This document shows positions 3,190-32,181 of a stretch of DNA of 61,474 nt, one piece after another (position 1 is the stretch's first letter; each line of letters starts with the position of its first letter). A program made the translations under genes and the position numbers. The notes beneath the pieces were generated by a model. The model worked only from the letters and a program-made list of their open reading frames with translations, did not search any database and was not told the origin of the DNA. Source of the DNA: a virus (Duplodnaviria; Caudoviricetes); the IMG/VR virus record IMGVR_UViG_3300050132_000042, positions 1-61,474 of that record, one strand, 5' to 3'.

Positions 3190-3579
3190 ATGACTGATCA
3201 GCGCGGCATCATCGATGCCCTCATCACTCTATTTGAAGATACGTTGGAGGTCGTGCCAGAGGGTTCGCGCGGGCTGATCTGCCGCCAGTTCACTCGCATC
3301 AAGGCCGAGTATGAGACCGCCCCGCCGCCCACGGCATTCCCGAAGGGTGGTGGGCCAGCCGCGTACTGGAAGCACTATCGCGAGAACCAGCAATTCAAGA
3401 TCGAGATTCGCGGCGGTGGCGAGTACGTCATGACCGGTGTGGACGCAGTCGCCGCGCACCTTGAAATGAAGCCCACCACATTCCGCCAGCGCATGTCCAC
3501 TGAGCGCGGCAAGTTTCACGTCATGCGGCACTGGGATGGTATCGACAAGGTGATCACTGTTACGCGCATCGCGGCGTGA
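3190..3579 (+). CDS. Hypothetical protein, possibly DNA-binding
   Basis: GGAGA RBS; HTH-like VDAVAAHLEMKPTTFRQRMS. Confidence 0.6.
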   Translation: MTDQRGIIDALITLFEDTLEVVPEGSRGLICRQFTRIKAEYETAPPPTAFPKGGGPAAYWKHYRENQQFKIEIRGGGEYVMTGVDAVAAHLEMKPTTFRQRMSTERGKFHVMRHWDGIDKVITVTRIAA

Positions 3580-7982: not shown

Positions 7983-8269
7983 TTGAACGACGCAGTGAGA
8001 TCACGCCCGCATTGCGAGACGTAATTGTCGAGCGTTACCGGCAGGTCAACGACGAGCACTTCAGCGCTGATCATGACGACGAACATACCGACTGCTCCCT
8101 GGCCATCGCGGGGGCGTACTACGCAGCGTTCTCCACTGACGCCATTGTCGACCCCTGGCCGTGGGATGAGTCATGGCTGAAGATCACGACGCACCGGCAG
8201 AACTGCGTGAAAGCCGCCGCGCTGATCATCGCTGAGATCGAGCGGCTCGACCGCAGGGAGGTGAAATGA
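7979..8269 (+). CDS. Conserved phage hypothetical protein
   Basis: ERxRQ...HDDEH...WPW...KAAALIIAEIERLDR pattern common in phages. Confidence 0.75.
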   Translation: MIERRSEITPALRDVIVERYRQVNDEHFSADHDDEHTDCSLAIAGAYYAAFSTDAIVDPWPWDESWLKITTHRQNCVKAAALIIAEIERLDRREVK

Positions 8270-8592
8270 GACAGTGCTACATCAGCGGCCAGTACAGCAA
8301 CGCCGACCCAATGCTGCGCAACGGCAACATCATGCGGGCGATGGAGGCAGGTATCGCTCTGCTTCAGCGCAACTGGCTTCCCATTGTTCCGCATACCAGC
8401 ATGAACCACAGCACGCCCTGGTCGGTCGCGATCAGCCGCGACAAGATGGTGCTGCACTCGCTCGACCCCATGACCGACGTGCTGGTCGTGCTCTCAGGTT
8501 GGGGTGACTCCCCTGGGGCATGCGAAGAAGTGAAGGTTGCGCAGATGCTCGGCATTCGGGTGCTCACACTACATGAGGCAATTCGGCTATGA
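8266..8592 (+). CDS. DUF4406-like / nucleoside deoxyribosyltransferase-fold protein
   Basis: YISGQYS...PIVPH...LSGWGDSPGACEE. Confidence 0.7.
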   Translation: MRQCYISGQYSNADPMLRNGNIMRAMEAGIALLQRNWLPIVPHTSMNHSTPWSVAISRDKMVLHSLDPMTDVLVVLSGWGDSPGACEEVKVAQMLGIRVLTLHEAIRL

Positions 8593-8879
8593 CCATCCAT
8601 GACGACTTCGCATTCTTCGGCCTCGACATCAACGCGAGCCTGAACGACATCAAGGAGCGCTATCGCACCCACGCCTTCAGTGCCCACCCCGACCAGGGCG
8701 GCGACACTGCGCAGTTCACGAAGCTGAACGAAGCATACAAGTCCTGCATCGAGTTCGCCCGCAACGCGCCATGCGCACTCTGCAATGGCATGGGCATCTT
8801 CACGACGATCAGCGCGGCGATGAAGTTGACGAAGATCCCGTGCGTGAAGTGCGACGGCACCGGGAGGGCGCACCGATGA
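8589..8879 (+). CDS. Minimal J-domain protein with a DnaJ-type zinc finger
   Basis: HPDQGG J-domain motif; CALCNGMG and CVKCDGTG. Confidence 0.85.
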   Translation: MTIHDDFAFFGLDINASLNDIKERYRTHAFSAHPDQGGDTAQFTKLNEAYKSCIEFARNAPCALCNGMGIFTTISAAMKLTKIPCVKCDGTGRAHR

Positions 8880-9016
8880 ACGACGCACAGATGAAACTGC
8901 TCGATGAAGCGCTCGCGCTGGTCAGGGATCACAGGCTGGTCGCAATGGCCAAGCGCATGAACCGCCTGGAGATCATCCTGGTCGCACTGAAAGAGATGAA
9001 CTGCAATAAGTCGTAG
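8876..9016 (+). CDS. Small hypothetical protein
   Basis: ATGA overlap; last gene of the operon. Confidence 0.5.
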   Translation: MNDAQMKLLDEALALVRDHRLVAMAKRMNRLEIILVALKEMNCNKS

Positions 9017-9025
9017 CCCGACCTT

Positions 9026-9060
9026 GCGGCCAACTGCACATATTGCAGTTGGCCGTAAAA
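9026..9060. terminator. Stem-loop (terminator or operator)
   Basis: GCGGCCAACTGCA-catat-TGCAGTTGGCCGT followed by AAAA. Confidence 0.6.
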
Positions 9061-9097
9061 ATATTTACGTATATTGCAGTAAACGCAAACATATTTA

Positions 9098-9127
9098 TTT
9101 ACAGCACTATACAAATCATGTCAAAAT
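9098..9127 (+). promoter_or_regulatory. Sigma70-like early promoter
   Basis: TTTACA-N18-CAAAAT with a TG extended -10, in an AT-rich patch; same layout as the promoter at 3099. Confidence 0.5.
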
Positions 9128-9129
9128 TA

Positions 9130-9780
9130 AGTCCCCACGGGTCTAGGCTCAGGGGATTGGGTCAGAACCGAAGTGAATGTTCCTGAACCATTTGTCTTTG
9201 CGACACGGGCACCAGACGCAGGCGGCGCGAGGTGAGGTTGATCGAGTGCATGAAGGCACGATGATCAGCAGAGGCCCAAGTCAGACAGCAAGCGCGAACG
9301 GTGAACGCGCTCCATCTCCTCAGAGTGAGATGACATGATCCAGCGCGATCAAGTAGTCCGTAGGGTAACGCATGATGCGGATTCAAGAGAACGATGGGGC
9401 CGAGCAGGGCACGAGATGCACTGACTCAAGTGACGACCCCGAGCTTGTGATGAACGGTGACAACCACGCAAGCTCACAACCGAGGCGGGCGGCCTCAGCA
9501 GTACATGAAGCACTTGCCAGGGCGTTTCAGGACGCTCGCCCGGAACGAGACGGACGAAGAAGATCGAATGAGAAGGGCCGCTAGACTGCAAAAGCAGGTT
9601 TGGCCCGATGCGCTGGCAAACACTGATGATGCGCGAAGCGTGTTCTTGCGGACACCTGACATCAGTGAGTACTGAGCAACGAACTTGCGGCGGGCGATTA
9701 ACAACGCTCTGCGGGAAACACCCGCCGCGAATCGTTGCACAGAACCGAGCAGCGATACAGGCTGCTCGTTCCTGTGCAAT
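9130..9780 (+). ncRNA. Putative large structured non-coding RNA
   Basis: No convincing CDS in an otherwise gene-dense genome; more than 15 helices, including nested long-range pairings (see findings). Confidence 0.65.
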
Positions 9781-9885
9781 CAAGCATGGGCATCGCAATC
9801 AGAGGAGAACTTATGGCGCACTTCTAGCATCGCCCCTTCCATCCCGCGCATATTGTGCAGTGCTGACATCTGACAGGAGAACACC

Positions 9886-10092
9886 ATGAAGCCCACCACG
9901 ACCACATGCCCCGCTTGCGGGCGCAAGTCCATCCATCTCGGCGTGCTCACCAACGTCGCCACGACGATTCATCGTGTGGCATGCTCTGAGTGCAAGGTGA
10001 AATGGCAAGTGAAGAATACGCCGCTGCCCACCAAGTACGCGGGCGTATTCATGAACCAACTCGATTTCGTCAACATCTCATGGGGGCGCTGA
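9886..10092 (+). CDS. Small zinc-ribbon protein
   Basis: CPAC...CSEC; AGGAGA RBS. Confidence 0.65.
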   Translation: MKPTTTTCPACGRKSIHLGVLTNVATTIHRVACSECKVKWQVKNTPLPTKYAGVFMNQLDFVNISWGR

Positions 10093-10373
10093 TGATCAGC
10101 AACCGGCCCACTGGCTACCAGTGCATGCAGTACACCGCGAAAGAACTGATCGAGCGCTGGGGCAAGTTCCACGCCGACATCACGGTCAGCCCGCTCCCGA
10201 AGCACAAGTACACCATCGAGATCATGCGCCACGACGGCATGACGGAGACCTGGAACTTCTCCGAGGTTGGCGTGCTGCTCTATGCTGCCCGCAACGCCAA
10301 GCGGATGTACAAGGCTGCCTGCGTGCTGGTCATCAGCCGCGACGGGAACTTCTTCACGGCCAAGGAGGTCTGA
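10092..10373 (+). CDS. Hypothetical early protein
   Basis: TGATG overlap; phage-like codon usage. Confidence 0.6.
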   Translation: MISNRPTGYQCMQYTAKELIERWGKFHADITVSPLPKHKYTIEIMRHDGMTETWNFSEVGVLLYAARNAKRMYKAACVLVISRDGNFFTAKEV

Positions 10374-10487
10374 GATGGAACGCGAGTTCATCAGTCCGTG
10401 GATCAGCAGGCATTGTCTCAGGTATCTCGCGCGGCATCCTCGTGCAGTGTGGTCATTGTCATGGGTCAATCTTGAAACCAGGGAGAA

Positions 10488-10823
10488 GTGATGAAGCATC
10501 GAGTCTACGTCCAGCGTGATCAGTACGGTGCGCTCGTCAAGGCGAGCTTCAACAAGTTCGACGGCACGACCGGCGGCTCGTGGGCCAGCACGACGAGGCA
10601 GCTTGCGGGTATCTGCATGCACGGCGATACCACCATGCGCCTGTTCGAGTCGTGCTGGCGTGATGCTGCGCGCGATTGCATGGTCGGCCACAGCAAGCCG
10701 ATCACCAAGTACAGCGACGACCAGGACATCGAGTGTGCGCGGCAGGACGCCGAAATGCTTGATGCGTACGCGCGTGGCAAGGTGAACAACGAGCGCAGCA
10801 GCTTCTACATTCACGGGAGGTAA
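10488..10823 (+). CDS. Hypothetical early protein
   Basis: GGAG RBS; codon usage. Confidence 0.6.
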   Translation: MMKHRVYVQRDQYGALVKASFNKFDGTTGGSWASTTRQLAGICMHGDTTMRLFESCWRDAARDCMVGHSKPITKYSDDQDIECARQDAEMLDAYARGKVNNERSSFYIHGR

Positions 10824-11660: not shown

Positions 11661-11977
11661 CCGAGAAGAAGATCTACCTGGAGCACTGCATGCAGGCCGA
11701 CCCGCAGTTCTTGCGCGAGTGCCTGGATGAACCCAGCAGGTTCATGCGCCCGATCCATCTGCTGCTGATCAGGCTCGCGCTGAGAAAGCGAGGACTGGCA
11801 TGAGGACGTACTACTTGTATCAGTACAGCGGCGTGTCGCATCGGCGCACGCTCAACGACATGATCATTGCCACTGTGCGGGCGTCGAACACCGACGACGC
11901 ATGGTGGTTGTTCCAGGATCGCAACCCCAAGGTCAAGCGGTTCGTGGGCATCTGACATCTGACATAGGAGGACCATC

Positions 11978-12358
11978 ATGGTCATCACCAGCAGCACTCG
12001 CAGCATCCTCTCCAGCGCGTTGATCGCGCTCACCGGCCCGCTGCCAATCCACAAGTCCAAGAGCGTGCTTCGCGCCGCATTCCTGGCCAAGCGCAAGGCC
12101 GAGCGCGAGCAGTGCATTCCGTTCGCGCACGGTGCTGAGGACTCGCACAAGTGGGAGAGCGAGAGCAACAAGCCGAAGTCGCAGCGCACCTACTATCTGG
12201 GCCTCGGCGGCCTCGTGAGTCAGCGCATCGCGCTGGTCGGCGACCTGCATGCGACCTGCCGCGCCCACGACACCGCCGAGGCGCTCGACAAGTTCACGCA
12301 GTCGTACCGGGCGCGCGAGTGCCAGCCGTTGTTCGCGCCGTTCGTGAAAGGACACTAA
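11978..12358 (+). CDS. Hypothetical early protein
   Basis: AGGAGG RBS preceded by a CATCTGA tandem repeat. Confidence 0.6.
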   Translation: MVITSSTRSILSSALIALTGPLPIHKSKSVLRAAFLAKRKAEREQCIPFAHGAEDSHKWESESNKPKSQRTYYLGLGGLVSQRIALVGDLHATCRAHDTAEALDKFTQSYRARECQPLFAPFVKGH

Positions 12359-12359
12359 G

Positions 12360-12686
12360 ATGATCGTCTACGCCATCAAGCACATTCCGACCGGCAAGTT
12401 CATGCCCGCGAGAATGGAAGGCTCTCGCAGTGGCTCGCGCGGCTGGAGCCACTGGGTTCCCGAGCATCAGTCTTCGCCCGAAGTTCTTCCACGTCTCTGG
12501 CAGACGCATCAGCGGGCCGCGCGGGCGCTCACCGCATGGCTCGAAGGCGTGTTCGTCTACGTCGTGGAACATTACGGAGAGTACGGCCAAGAGACAGATT
12601 GCGTACTGCAACCGACCAAGCCAATCATCGAACGTAAGCGTGAGGACATGGTCATCGTGCCCATGACGCTCACTTCTCACATCTGA
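12360..12686 (+). CDS. Hypothetical early protein
   Basis: MIVYAIKHIPTGKF-type N-terminus. Confidence 0.65.
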   Translation: MIVYAIKHIPTGKFMPARMEGSRSGSRGWSHWVPEHQSSPEVLPRLWQTHQRAARALTAWLEGVFVYVVEHYGEYGQETDCVLQPTKPIIERKREDMVIVPMTLTSHI

Positions 12687-12975
12687 CAGGAGAATCAAAT
12701 GACACCATCCGATATCGAAGTGCTGCTGCATTACAACACCATCGGCACCCCTCACCCGCGCATCCACGCTCCCGCTGTCCGTCAAGGCATCGAGTGGTTC
12801 GTTCGCATGGATGTGCTCGCGCCTACTGTCGACGAAGGCGCCTATGAACTGACACCGAGAGGCAAAGCACTACTCAGCTTGCTCTGCAATACGCTGATGC
12901 CGACGCCCGCGTGGCTCGACGCTGCTGGCAACATCATCACCAAGTAAATCGCACATCTGACAGGAGAATCAAATG
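12678..12975 (+). repeat. 24-bp direct repeats flanking one gene
   Basis: CACATCTGACAGGAGAATCAAATG is identical at 12678-12701 and 12952-12975. Confidence 0.95.
12699..12947 (+). CDS. Small winged-helix-like hypothetical protein
   Basis: YELTPRGKALL wing motif; strong RBS. Confidence 0.65.
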   Translation: MTPSDIEVLLHYNTIGTPHPRIHAPAVRQGIEWFVRMDVLAPTVDEGAYELTPRGKALLSLLCNTLMPTPAWLDAAGNIITK

Positions 12976-15168: not shown

Positions 15169-15172
15169 TCTA

Positions 15173-15640
15173 ATGGGATACCCAGCAACTCCAGTGCAAG
15201 ATCGGATCATGGCAAAGATCAACACACGCAATCCAGATGCGTGCTGGAATTGGCTAGGCTGTAAATCTCTAGTTGGATACGGGTACATCAAAATTAAAAA
15301 GAAAATGGTGTACGCGCATCGAGCGGCGTACGAATCATTCGTTGGGCTCATACCATATGGGATGCACATTGATCATGTTTGCGAAAACAAGTCATGTGTT
15401 AATCCCAGCCATCTTCGTATCGCCACAATAAATGACAACATGCACCATAGGAGATTGCAGACTAACAATACGTCTGGGTACAAAGGCGTCCGTCATGTAT
15501 CTACATTCAAATGGGAGGCTCGCATTATGGTGAACAAAGTTTCAATCTGCATCGGCAGGTTTAACAGCCCTATCGATGCTCATACGGCTTACTGTGATGC
15601 TGCTCGCCAGTACCATGGTGAGTTCGCAAGCGGTGGTTAG
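15173..15640 (+). CDS. HNH homing endonuclease with an AP2-like domain
   Basis: CWNWLG...AHRAAY...IDHVCENKSCVNPSHL...N; NNTSGYKGV...WEARI; lower GC than neighbours. Confidence 0.9.
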   Translation: MGYPATPVQDRIMAKINTRNPDACWNWLGCKSLVGYGYIKIKKKMVYAHRAAYESFVGLIPYGMHIDHVCENKSCVNPSHLRIATINDNMHHRRLQTNNTSGYKGVRHVSTFKWEARIMVNKVSICIGRFNSPIDAHTAYCDAARQYHGEFASGG

Positions 15641-17178: not shown

Positions 17179-17215
17179 TGCGGGGCAGCGTTCAATTGCG
17201 CTGCCCCGCATTTCC
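17179..17215 (+). terminator. Rho-independent terminator
   Basis: TGCGGGGCAGCG-ttcaattg-CGCTGCCCCGCA followed by TTTC. Confidence 0.75.
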
Positions 17216-27340: not shown

Positions 27341-27370
27341 AATGCCCCGGTGCTGAACCGGGGCATTTTC
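27341..27370. terminator. Terminator at the convergence of the two genome arms
   Basis: AATGCCCCGGT-gctga-ACCGGGGCATT followed by TT. Confidence 0.75.
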
Positions 27371-27376
27371 ATGTAC

Positions 27377-27970
27377 TCAGAACCGGATCATCAGACTGAC
27401 TGCGACCTCGCCGCCATGCAGCACGCCCCCCGCTGGTGTCGTCATGGATACGAAACCAACCCTGCCGCCCAGCCGGAACGGGCCGATATCCCGCTGCGCC
27501 AGGACGCTCCTGGTGTTGCCCCACGGGTTGACTGCGTATTCCAGGCCCGCCGCCCAGTTCAACGTCTTGGGGGCCTGCCCAGCGTTGACCACGACCGTAT
27601 CCTGACCCGAGACGACCGTGCCGTTCGGGCTGCTGGTGATGATTCGCTCGCCGCCATCGGGTTCCTTGACCAGTGACCAGTCGATAATGACCGGCGTGTG
27701 GGGCAGTTCGTCGGGCTGGATCGTAGCCTCGCCCGTGCGTTCGACGACATCACCTTTCGGGATGATCTGCTTCGGCTTGGCCTTCGGATTCTCCTTGCGC
27801 TCCAGAACCAGCGAGTTGTCGGTCTGCCGAACTTCCGGCTTCGGCGCGACTGCACTCGGCGGCAGCGGCTTCGGTTGGTACAACTTCCAACCGAGTCCAA
27901 GCCCCGAGGCGAACCCGGCAAGGACCAGCACCGAGCCCAGGATCACATACGACTTCGTTGTCATCGTCAT
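27377..27970 (-). CDS. Lysis accessory (spanin-like) protein with an N-terminal TM and C-terminal amphipathic beta-strands ending in Phe
   Basis: Last gene of the lysis cluster; TM YVILGSVLVLAGFASGLGLGW; ends VAVSLMIRF. Confidence 0.5.
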   Translation of the reverse strand: MTMTTKSYVILGSVLVLAGFASGLGLGWKLYQPKPLPPSAVAPKPEVRQTDNSLVLERKENPKAKPKQIIPKGDVVERTGEATIQPDELPHTPVIIDWSLVKEPDGGERIITSSPNGTVVSGQDTVVVNAGQAPKTLNWAAGLEYAVNPWGNTRSVLAQRDIGPFRLGGRVGFVSMTTPAGGVLHGGEVAVSLMIRF

Positions 27971-28245
27971 TGAGGATCACCCGCTTTCTGTGCATCATTC
28001 TTCTCCCTCGCACGAGTGGCCCATGTGCTGTTGACTTTGGTGACGGTCACAAGCCCAGCGAGCACCAAGAAGTTCTGATTCCAGCCATCAGTGAAGCCAG
28101 CCCCCTTGTACACACCATGACTGAGCCAGAACAGATCGCAGAGCACCGTCAATGAGTACGCGGCAAGCACGACATCGGCGGTGTGGTCTCCTGCATCCAT
28201 GAATTTCTGAAACCACATGATCAACCACCTCAGAATCGAGTTCAT
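27967..28245 (-). CDS. Putative holin
   Basis: 92 aa, two hydrophobic segments, charged C-tail, GGAGG RBS, next to the endolysin. Confidence 0.6.
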   Translation of the reverse strand: MNSILRWLIMWFQKFMDAGDHTADVVLAAYSLTVLCDLFWLSHGVYKGAGFTDGWNQNFLVLAGLVTVTKVNSTWATRAREKNDAQKAGDPQ

Positions 28246-30934: not shown

Positions 30935-32172
30935 ACGATCCCCACCTGAATAGTGCTGCCATCAATGGGCACATGAGGATATTGATCAATATTAGTCGGT
31001 AAATCGAGACCGCTGGGGTTGGGTGCAGCGCCCACCCCGATACTGATAACCTGAACGTTTGGCGACACGCCACTGACTGGGCCGTACAATGACCCCGCAT
31101 AAACTGTGCTACCAATAGCCCCAAATGTATTGTTGGGGGTGCTGAATAAACTTAATATTTCCGACTTGATCAGATCTGCAAGATTCGCGGGTAGCCCCGG
31201 TATGAATTTGATCACGATGTTGATGTAGATATTTACAGCAGATGGTTGCTCGTATGTCACCGAGTATTGGGGGTACGGGGGCGACAATAACGATCTATCC
31301 TCAACTGTCAATGTAGTGTTTCCATTGTAGTCGCATCCCACACTTTTCTTTGACCAAATTGCATTGGCGATGGACTGAGGGTCTCCACCCAGAGCGGCCA
31401 CGTACACCGAGTGCGCCGCGAGTGCTACGCCGCCGATGACTGCTACAGTATTAGTAAAGTTTTCAGTGACATAGACATTGCTGGGAGTATTTGGTACGGG
31501 CAGATCAGCACCGCTAGAAATGACAGCAGCACGGATTGACTGCAAGTTAGCTACTGCATTCGCTGCAACCGATGCCTGTCTGCGCAACTCAAAATCTTGT
31601 GACGACTCGACGTTTGTACCTTCGATCAAATCATCAGGGTTCACAATGCCAGACCACCCCGGCACAGCCAAGTAGATCTGATTAAGCTTGCCAGATACAC
31701 ATGGGATCGGGCCAGTTTTCTGATTGGCGAAATTCAGAATGATCGAACCAGAAGGGGGGATCGTTCCGCCATCCTGACAGAGATAAATATTCTGATTGTT
31801 GTCGCTGGCCTGCGCATTCACAGGAATGACCGTTCCCGGAAGTCCAGTACAGACACACGGCCCATTCGTGGCAGTGGCCGGGAACCGAGTCTGAAAGTAG
31901 AGCAGCCCTATGGCATCCTGCATCGACCCCTGTGCGAACTGCGGATCGACCTGAGATACGAAATATGCAAACAGATCATTCTTATCCGCGATGTACGCGG
32001 ACACAGAAGTAGCAAGCTGCCCCTGCGGCGTCGACAGCGCTTCAGGAGATGACGCGTTGAGCGTGCCGCCGAACGCCGAATTTATATCTGCCATAACGGC
32101 ACTGAGAACGTCGGCATCTGCCGGTTCTATATACCCGGTAGGGCCAAGGACGGGTTCCGGAACAGTTGACAT
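30931..32172 (-). CDS. Baseplate J-like wedge protein
   Basis: TPQGQLA...DP..AQG.MQDAIG...G.NVES..DFELRR. Confidence 0.9.
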   Translation of the reverse strand: MSTVPEPVLGPTGYIEPADADVLSAVMADINSAFGGTLNASSPEALSTPQGQLATSVSAYIADKNDLFAYFVSQVDPQFAQGSMQDAIGLLYFQTRFPATATNGPCVCTGLPGTVIPVNAQASDNNQNIYLCQDGGTIPPSGSIILNFANQKTGPIPCVSGKLNQIYLAVPGWSGIVNPDDLIEGTNVESSQDFELRRQASVAANAVANLQSIRAAVISSGADLPVPNTPSNVYVTENFTNTVAVIGGVALAAHSVYVAALGGDPQSIANAIWSKKSVGCDYNGNTTLTVEDRSLLSPPYPQYSVTYEQPSAVNIYINIVIKFIPGLPANLADLIKSEILSLFSTPNNTFGAIGSTVYAGSLYGPVSGVSPNVQVISIGVGAAPNPSGLDLPTNIDQYPHVPIDGSTIQVGIV

Positions 32173-32181
32173 AATCGACCC

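Follow-up and report, generated by a model that had tools for sequence, protein, structure and literature searches.

A candidate large structured RNA of about 660 nucleotides behind a conserved promoter in an environmental phage genome

The gap at 9 kb and its relatives

The window analysed here (61,474 bases) is one complete IMG/VR virus record, IMGVR_UViG_3300050132_000042 (Duplodnaviria, Caudoviricetes), with rightward genes over 3190–27339 and leftward genes in the remainder. Within the rightward block, a primase/helicase gene, an exonuclease gene, a deoxyribosyltransferase-like gene and a DnaJ-domain gene are followed by a gap at 9017–9885 (869 nucleotides (nt), counted up to the start of a 68-amino-acid (aa) gene at 9886); beyond it lie small genes of no assigned function and genes for DUF932, HNH, YqaJ exonuclease, family A DNA polymerase and PD-(D/E)XK nuclease proteins. 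We are highly confident that about 9130–9790 of this gap specifies, on the + strand, a real non-coding RNA (ncRNA) of ~660 nt that is folded into several domains, is under evolutionary constraint and belongs to a family absent from Rfam.

The gap is the largest interval of the window without coding signal; a greedy gene map placed the largest true gap at 9017–9779, and a bigger apparent gap at 30935–32181 was rejected, being a real open reading frame (ORF) of 413 aa with atypical codon usage. The only promoter called within 8500–10500 is of sigma-70 type, lies directly upstream of the element and has a TG extension of the -10; the three relatives described below showed no change in either hexamer, in the TG or in the following 20 nt, and a variant from metagenome run X4 reads GATAAT in place of CAAAAT at the -10. 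Transcription would start at about 9130–9137. An initial annotation, made from the letters of the window, had drawn attention to this gap as the largest without a credible coding sequence and to TTTACA/CAAAAT just upstream, and both observations stood. It had also placed the element at the head of the early operon; since the first rightward genes start at 3190 behind a different promoter, the element heads the second rightward unit.

Parts of the 31-mer content of 9017–9885 were present in 24 public metagenome runs. Four of these (labelled peat, freshwater and lake water) were examined, and contig pieces 90–100% identical to the window were present in 4/4; run X4 gave a contig of 1071 nt over 8607–9677 with 49 substitutions and 0 gaps, where 13 of the changes listed fell in the 115-nt spacer upstream of the promoter (9017–9131) and 12 in the next 359 nt. 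A metagenome scan with a 97%-identical homolog of the 93-aa protein encoded downstream of the gap yielded three contigs of a sister lineage (L005, L006 and L007, mutually 98.5–99.5% alike), which retain the order DnaJ-like gene, small gene, element, 93-aa gene. By blastn, window positions 9056–9790 were 80.6% identical to L005 and L006 over 756 columns (79.6% for L007), compared with 74.3% for the flanking coding DNA on the left (8000–8920) and 74.4% on the right (10092–10385), the overall range of the flanks being 74–76%. In 80-nt windows the identity was 95% at 9120–9199, 89% at 9200–9279, 55% at 9360–9439 and 88–89% at 9600–9759; the highest values of the 2.4-kb locus were those of 9120–9279 and 9600–9759, and no coding window exceeded 89%. 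Unpaired columns were as conserved as paired ones (82% vs 83%). The element is known from these two narrow lineages, in environmental samples only.

Coding signal was assessed with codon-usage log-odds trained on 21 long ORFs of the window: values were below 0 in 6/6 frames over ~9020–9880 and +0.5 to +0.7 in the neighbouring genes. The 113 substitutions between the window and the L005 element were split 41/35/37 over the codon phases, without periodicity; third positions took 40/81 and 33/74 of the substitutions in the flanking genes. Indels were not multiples of three in 12/14 cases (the exceptions being 6 and 3 nt), and because of these frame-shifting indels and the lack of periodicity a reading under any alternative genetic code is also unlikely. 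The ORFs of 53–149 aa in the gap differ between the two lineages, except for the 53-aa frame 9177–9338, which is intact in both because its stretch has no indels; its 18 nucleotide changes altered 13 codons, 12/13 of them nonsynonymous. A Pfam search of seven gap ORFs gave no match, and 0/4 gap ORFs looked up in a protein collection matched a called gene. A conserved coding signal, which the initial annotation had named as grounds for withdrawing its proposal, was thus sought in codon usage, substitution phase and indels and not found.

Fold, strand and architecture of the element

The minimum free energy of 9130–9790 was -254.7 kcal/mol, compared with -232.8 +/- 6.2 for 100 dinucleotide shuffles (z = -3.53; 0/100 as low); in a run of 20 shuffles z was -2.9 on the + strand and -3.5 on the - strand. 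Ten coding windows of the same length and strand gave z of -1.84 to +1.64 (mean -0.02), so that the stability of the element is unusual for this genome. RNAalifold on four sequences (alignment A2, 684 columns) returned a consensus of 204 pairs in 28 helices, with 97.9% of cells paired and 18 compensatory pairs distributed over 14/28 helices; controls gave 0–1 such pairs when partners were slid by 1–3 columns and 4.6 +/- 1.9 in column shuffles.

Because the RNAalifold fold is fitted to the alignment, the comparison was repeated with a fold computed from the window sequence only. When its 210 pairs were read in L005, 151 were unchanged, 16 were kept after a one-sided change, 19 were broken by such a change and 7 were gapped, and doubly changed pairs were kept in 17/17 cases; random canonical column pairs (1000 draws) gave a mean of 2.2 doubly changed pairs kept and 3.7 broken, and at most 9 kept. 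The consensus energy of window and L005 on the + strand was -214.9 vs -156.4 +/- 8.0 for 40 column-shuffled alignments (z -7.3), with a structure conservation index (SCI) of 0.83 vs 0.665 for the shuffled set (maximum 0.714); a coding control of the same length had SCI 0.60 and z -2.3. The X4 contig adds an independent compensatory change in helix 9237/9263, 9241 A>G with 9265 T>C, turning A-U into G-C.

As to the strand, the - strand gave a consensus energy of -190.9 and SCI 0.75, and changed pairs were kept in 33/52 cases on the + strand and 23/52 on the - strand. Unpaired positions were 44% A, 25% G and 17% C, would be U-rich if read on the - strand, and in folded RNAs are usually biased to A. 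The wobble pairs and the A-rich loops also point to the + strand, on which the promoter and all neighbouring genes lie.

The consensus fold has three domains (Table 1). Conservation across the locus peaks in the 5' domain, and most indels fall in the central domain. At the 3' end a long alternative hairpin, 9735–9779, competes with two of the stems; since both of the mutually exclusive pairings are sequence-conserved, a conformational switch is possible there on the modelled fold. Fold stability ended at about 9790 (9760–9905 gave z = +1.8). Two hairpin loops, 9298–9304 and 9454–9460, have the motif ACGGUGA in common; the former is invariant in L005–L007 and the latter keeps GGUGACAA, and the two may possibly be a pair of protein-binding or tertiary-contact sites. 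CATCTGA, CTGACATC and ACGGTGA were not enriched genome-wide.

The strong foldability, the compensatory changes and the wobble pairs pointing to the + strand had all been put forward in the initial annotation, or proposed by it as a check, and were borne out. Its helices fared less evenly: 10 of 13 structural elements recur in the consensus fold and 7/13 have compensatory changes (9237/9263, 9313/9327, 9441/9469, the 9575 hairpin, 9621/9660, 9685/9721 and the inner hairpin 9746–9768), and the rest do not recur. In the relatives, one pair is lost, uncompensated, from each of the nested long-range helices CAGTAC/GTACTG and TTGCCAG/CTGGCAA, and the consensus substitutes 9340–9346/9610–9616 and 9356–9361/9550–9555; the hairpin drawn at 9520 is paired differently.

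Table 1. Coordinates of the predicted RNA element and of the features flanking it in the window.
Feature	Position	Strand	Remarks
Palindromic hairpin, 15-bp arms, without U tract	9024–9058	+	Closes upstream operon; from repeat search and relatives' alignment
Two direct repeat units ~30 bp apart, ATATTGCAGT ... AAA.ATATTTA	9040–9097	+	A/T-rich, abutting -35; partly conserved in relatives
Sigma-70-type promoter, TTTACA-18-CAAAAT, extended -10 (TG-n-CAAAAT)	9098–9127	+	Promoter call
5' domain	9130–9333	+	Consensus fold
Hairpins of 5' domain	9139–9150, 9158–9190	+
Multibranch of 5' domain	9192–9288	+	Around hairpins 9211–9233 and 9237–9269
Hairpin of 5' domain	9291–9311	+	Invariant loop AACGGUGAA
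Hairpin of 5' domain	9313–9332	+	Stem covaries twice; invariant UCAGA loop
Central domain	9340–9616	+	Closed by 9340–9346/9610–9616 (invariant) and 9356–9361/9550–9555 (2 compensatory pairs)
Variable sub-hairpins of central domain	9363–9419, 9425–9489, 9491–9540	+	9425–9489 with 9441–9475
Hairpin of central domain	9575–9606	+	3 compensatory pairs
3' domain, four stems	9621–9790	+	Identity to relatives 88–89%
Stems of 3' domain	9621–9667, 9669–9745, 9746–9768, 9771–9790	+	9621–9667 with inner 9637–9657; 9669–9745 branched around 9685–9730
Window-specific junction, unstructured	9791–9885	+	Relic Shine-Dalgarno, 4-codon mini-ORF ~9802–9825, then shared initiation motif CTGACATCTGACAGGAGAAC
68-aa zinc-ribbon-like gene	9886–10092	+	Outside RNA; insertion relative to L005–L007
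93-aa gene, conserved downstream neighbour	10092–10373	+	64% aa identity in L005–L007
Strong intrinsic terminator, 13-bp stem, T-rich tail	17179–17210	+	Likely end of RNA-headed unit

Flanking features and comparison with known RNAs

The relatives L005–L007 are without both 9791–9862 and the 68-aa gene, and the ribosome-binding site of their 93-aa gene lies ~25 nt behind the element; the window inserts 69 nt plus the 68-aa gene at the point where the relatives join the RNA to that gene, and in run X2 261 other letters replace 9794–9862. These three different junctions (window, relatives and run X2) indicate one sharp 3' boundary, near 9790, common to all three arrangements. A near-identical initiation region, ACATCTGACAGGAGAA(T/C)..ATG, is common to several early genes (9863–9888, 11949–11980, 12678–12700 and 12952–12975), and the 68-aa gene seems to have been inserted between two ACATCTGACAGGAGAA-type motifs, leaving the relic Shine-Dalgarno and the 4-codon ORF. 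The shared motif suggests gene shuffling by recombination at it; its heptamer by itself showed no genome-wide enrichment.

Upstream, the relatives keep the 8-nt arms TGCAGTTG/CAACTGCA of the 9024–9058 palindrome in swapped order around a longer loop of 15 nt (L005 ~2683–2713), and the palindrome may bind a protein or act as a non-canonical terminator. The repeats abutting the -35 are possible UP element or operator sites; ATATTGCAGT was not enriched, and a search for tandem repeats found none. No intrinsic terminator and no antisense promoter was called within 8500–10500, and the terminator at 17179–17210 is the only strong one on the + strand downstream of the promoter. Within the unit, the apparent gene-map gap of 425 nt at 15169–15593 contains an HNH endonuclease gene (15173–15640). 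Family searches with the 93-aa protein gave no informative family, and only two homolog clusters were present among 5.8 billion proteins.

Far from the element, in the A/T-rich divergent region between a ParB-like/methyltransferase gene and the first rightward gene, 2617–2985 holds eight copies of GTAATAGCA (the core of TGTAATAGCAG), four per strand, where 0.05 were expected. This array is likely an iteron array or a parS-type site and, judged from its sequence pattern, more promising as an origin than the gap at 9 kb.

Searched with the whole window, Rfam 15 gave 0 matches at the gathering threshold and, at E <= 10, rows of chance level only; the GOLLD and ROOL models gave no row at E <= 10 over 8900–10000 of the window or 2650–3480 of L005. 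The riboswitch, T-box and ribosomal-protein leader models of Rfam did not match, nor did those for RNase P RNA and group I/II introns, and ARAGORN found 0 tRNA and 0 tmRNA in the 61,474-bp record. These searches agree with the statement in the initial annotation that no tRNA, tmRNA or group I/II intron core could be recognised (the element also lies between genes, not inside one), and with its proposal of a novel large phage ncRNA in the GOLLD/ROOL size class; the functions it suggested (antiterminator, scaffold, ribozyme or decoy) are conjectural.

No match to the element was found by blastn against GenBank phages, in IMG/VR scans (with flanking proteins, with translated gap ORFs as a degenerate DNA probe, and with a conserved-motif pattern), among GTDB genome contigs or in an initial metagenome scan. 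The nearest named phages by primase identity (43–46%) are PW916, AXL3, MW202621 and L003, with the Pseudoxanthomonas phage PW916 and the Stenotrophomonas phage AXL3 at 43–44%. Against these four (39 kb of 55.7 kb for MW202621) and the rest of the window, an nhmmer profile of the four sequences and a covariance model of the 5' core (R1) gave only non-self matches at E > 2, and the only significant R1 matches were the sequences used to build it. AXL3 and PW916 had no comparable gap downstream of their DnaJ-like gene. In the distantly related phage L009 (MW202621.1) an interval of 787 nt without annotated coding sequence, 27347–28133, lies upstream of the DNA polymerase gene; it did not match the RNA by nhmmer or the 5'-core model. 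The element is non-coding and conserved, with helices kept by compensatory substitutions, as expected of a large structured ncRNA in general, and we hold it to be very probably both a genuine ~660-nt RNA and a member of a new family, with no match in Rfam, GenBank phages, IMG/VR or GTDB. A word-based search of the literature on large phage RNAs returned only known classes and, since it did not use this sequence, cannot show that the element is unpublished.

Membership of GOLLD or ROOL was excluded by the model searches together with the absence of tRNAs. GOLLD and ROOL are phage RNAs that assemble into cages made of RNA only (nanocages seen by cryo-electron microscopy (cryo-EM) as closed homo-oligomeric assemblies) and whose function is not known; in phages and prophages, GOLLD usually lies beside tRNA genes or tRNA islands (PMC12286853). 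The element resembles the two in being phage-encoded, in its 600–800 nt class, in its elaborate covariation-supported multi-helix fold, in having no known protein partner or function, and in setting a conserved part beside a variable one. It differs from GOLLD in not lying near tRNA genes, and from both in being promoter-proximal, ahead of protein genes, without a terminator of its own and confined to two narrow lineages; the cages are a feature of GOLLD and ROOL, and the element is known here from sequence alone.

Two other transcripts were also compared. The put RNA of phage HK022 consists of two stem-loops (~70 nt) and suppresses downstream terminators in cis; the element is like put in its position directly behind an early promoter, in its expected use of the host polymerase and in its indifference to the identity of the downstream gene, but put is about a tenth of its size (660 nt, 28 helices), and no internal terminators needing suppression were found in the unit, the one strong terminator found being at its end. 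The RNA II pre-primer of ColE1, a structured transcript of ~550–650 nt that is not translated, arises within a replication region and has a sigma-70 promoter. The element is alike in size, promoter type and setting; unlike RNA II, it is followed directly by a gene, no antisense promoter of the RNA I type was found, and the iteron-like repeats are elsewhere in the genome.

Readings of the element

The explanation we prefer joins the identity of the element, its synthesis and an autonomous mode of action, and taken as a whole we consider it probable. Host sigma-70 RNA polymerase would start at the conserved extended -10 promoter, and the RNA would form the first 660 nt of a transcript of ~8 kb that continues through the small genes and the DUF932, HNH and YqaJ-type exonuclease genes to end at 17179–17210; synthesis as the head of such a unit is suggested because no strong intrinsic terminator was found before that site. 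Its dense helices and A-rich, C-poor linkers would make the untranslated stretch a poor substrate for Rho. We lean, tentatively and by analogy, to an autonomous folded module of the "ornate large phage RNA" kind over a gene-specific leader, that is, a self-contained tertiary structure which may serve as a scaffold, assembly, decoy or catalyst and not as a sensor for the next gene, and which might be released by nucleolysis at the 3' hairpins. The autonomous module is favoured because what follows the 3' boundary at ~9790 is different in each of three variants, because unpaired nucleotides are as conserved as stems, and because the size is beyond that of known cis-regulatory leaders; we know of no riboswitch, T-box or other such leader that approaches ~660 nt.

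The main competitor is a cis-acting leader, whose nascent RNA would modify its own polymerase (processive antitermination or anti-Rho action, in the manner of HK022 put) or switch to control the translation or stability of the operon. The place of the element, first in an ~8-kb unit and immediately after a conserved promoter, the lack of a terminator between RNA and genes, the closeness of the next ribosome-binding site in the relatives (~25 nt) and the exclusive, conserved 3' pairings (9735–9779 vs 9669–9745 plus 9771–9790) would all suit it. We nevertheless judge it somewhat unlikely: at ~660 nt and three domains the element is far larger than put, no strong intrinsic terminator inside the unit calls for suppression, and three variants each have their own junction to the next gene. 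Pairing of the RNA to translation-initiation regions and to ACATCTGACAGGAGAA did not surpass that of shuffled sequences (fractions 0.085, 0.23, 0.945 and 0.855), and anti-Shine-Dalgarno pairing with the shared initiation motif was dropped, its duplex energies being no better than those of shuffled motifs.

A replication-origin transcript, either a structured pre-primer resembling RNA II or an R-loop RNA that activates an origin, could draw on the location between primase/exonuclease/DnaJ-like genes and recombination/DNA polymerase genes, and on the strong promoter with an A/T-rich segment (two ~30-bp repeats and a palindrome) just upstream. We regard it as very improbable, the repeats being upstream of the promoter and not at the 3' end of the RNA, a ribosome-binding site and gene following directly in the relatives, no antisense promoter having been found in 8500–10500, and a much better origin or partition candidate lying at 2617–2985. 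Least probable of all is that the gap encodes no RNA and consists of decayed or unrecognised small protein genes or of protein-bound DNA palindromes. The ORFs of 53–149 aa, one of them (9177–9338) intact in both lineages, and a - strand fold nearly as stable as that of the + strand speak for this; against it stand the want of codon signal and of third-position bias, the frame-shifting indels, the nonsynonymous nature of nearly all changed codons (12/13) in the shared ORF, and the compensatory and wobble changes of long-range helices together with the A-rich loops, which are signatures of RNA. Decayed DNA, moreover, would not exceed the conservation of functional genes on both sides. What probability remains is left to mechanisms beyond those named.

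Several points weigh against the reading of the element as an autonomous + strand RNA. The transcript, its start and its end are read from DNA; the 3' end lacks a terminator and, in the relatives, leads straight into a ribosome-binding site, as in a plain 5' leader; the case for an autonomous module draws on analogy and on the variable junction. The covariation comes from one deep split and a few strain variants (two diverged lineages), which is below the reach of R-scape-type statistics. A fold predicted from L005 and read in the window kept 12 doubly changed pairs and broke 4, and the - strand also scored well (z -7.3; doubly changed pairs kept/broken 13/4, and 10/3 in the reverse direction). 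The inner fold of the central domain was poorly resolved, with helix probabilities of 0.2–0.7.

To our knowledge structured RNAs longer than ~500 nt are seldom encountered and fall into a handful of classes, and each characterised large class we know of is a ribozyme, a core component of a ribonucleoprotein or, recently, an RNA-only nanocage. The element may be the founding member of a new class of self-acting "ornate" phage RNAs (catalytic, assembling from RNA alone or serving as an anti-defence decoy) made early in infection at the head of an operon and released, a proposal to which we give somewhat less than even weight. If it is true, biology of the GOLLD/ROOL type would extend to environmental myoviruses of the Gram-negative type and to a promoter-proximal, tRNA-independent setting. 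As a candidate new class it has a promoter that is defined and boundaries that are clean, its 5' core (200 nt) is very conserved, and it comes with a natural "variable domain"; these properties make it usable for folding in vitro, cryo-EM and reporter assays. The element also shows that a gap without genes in an early operon of a phage can be more strongly constrained than the genes on either side, so that annotation should not write such gaps off as spacers.

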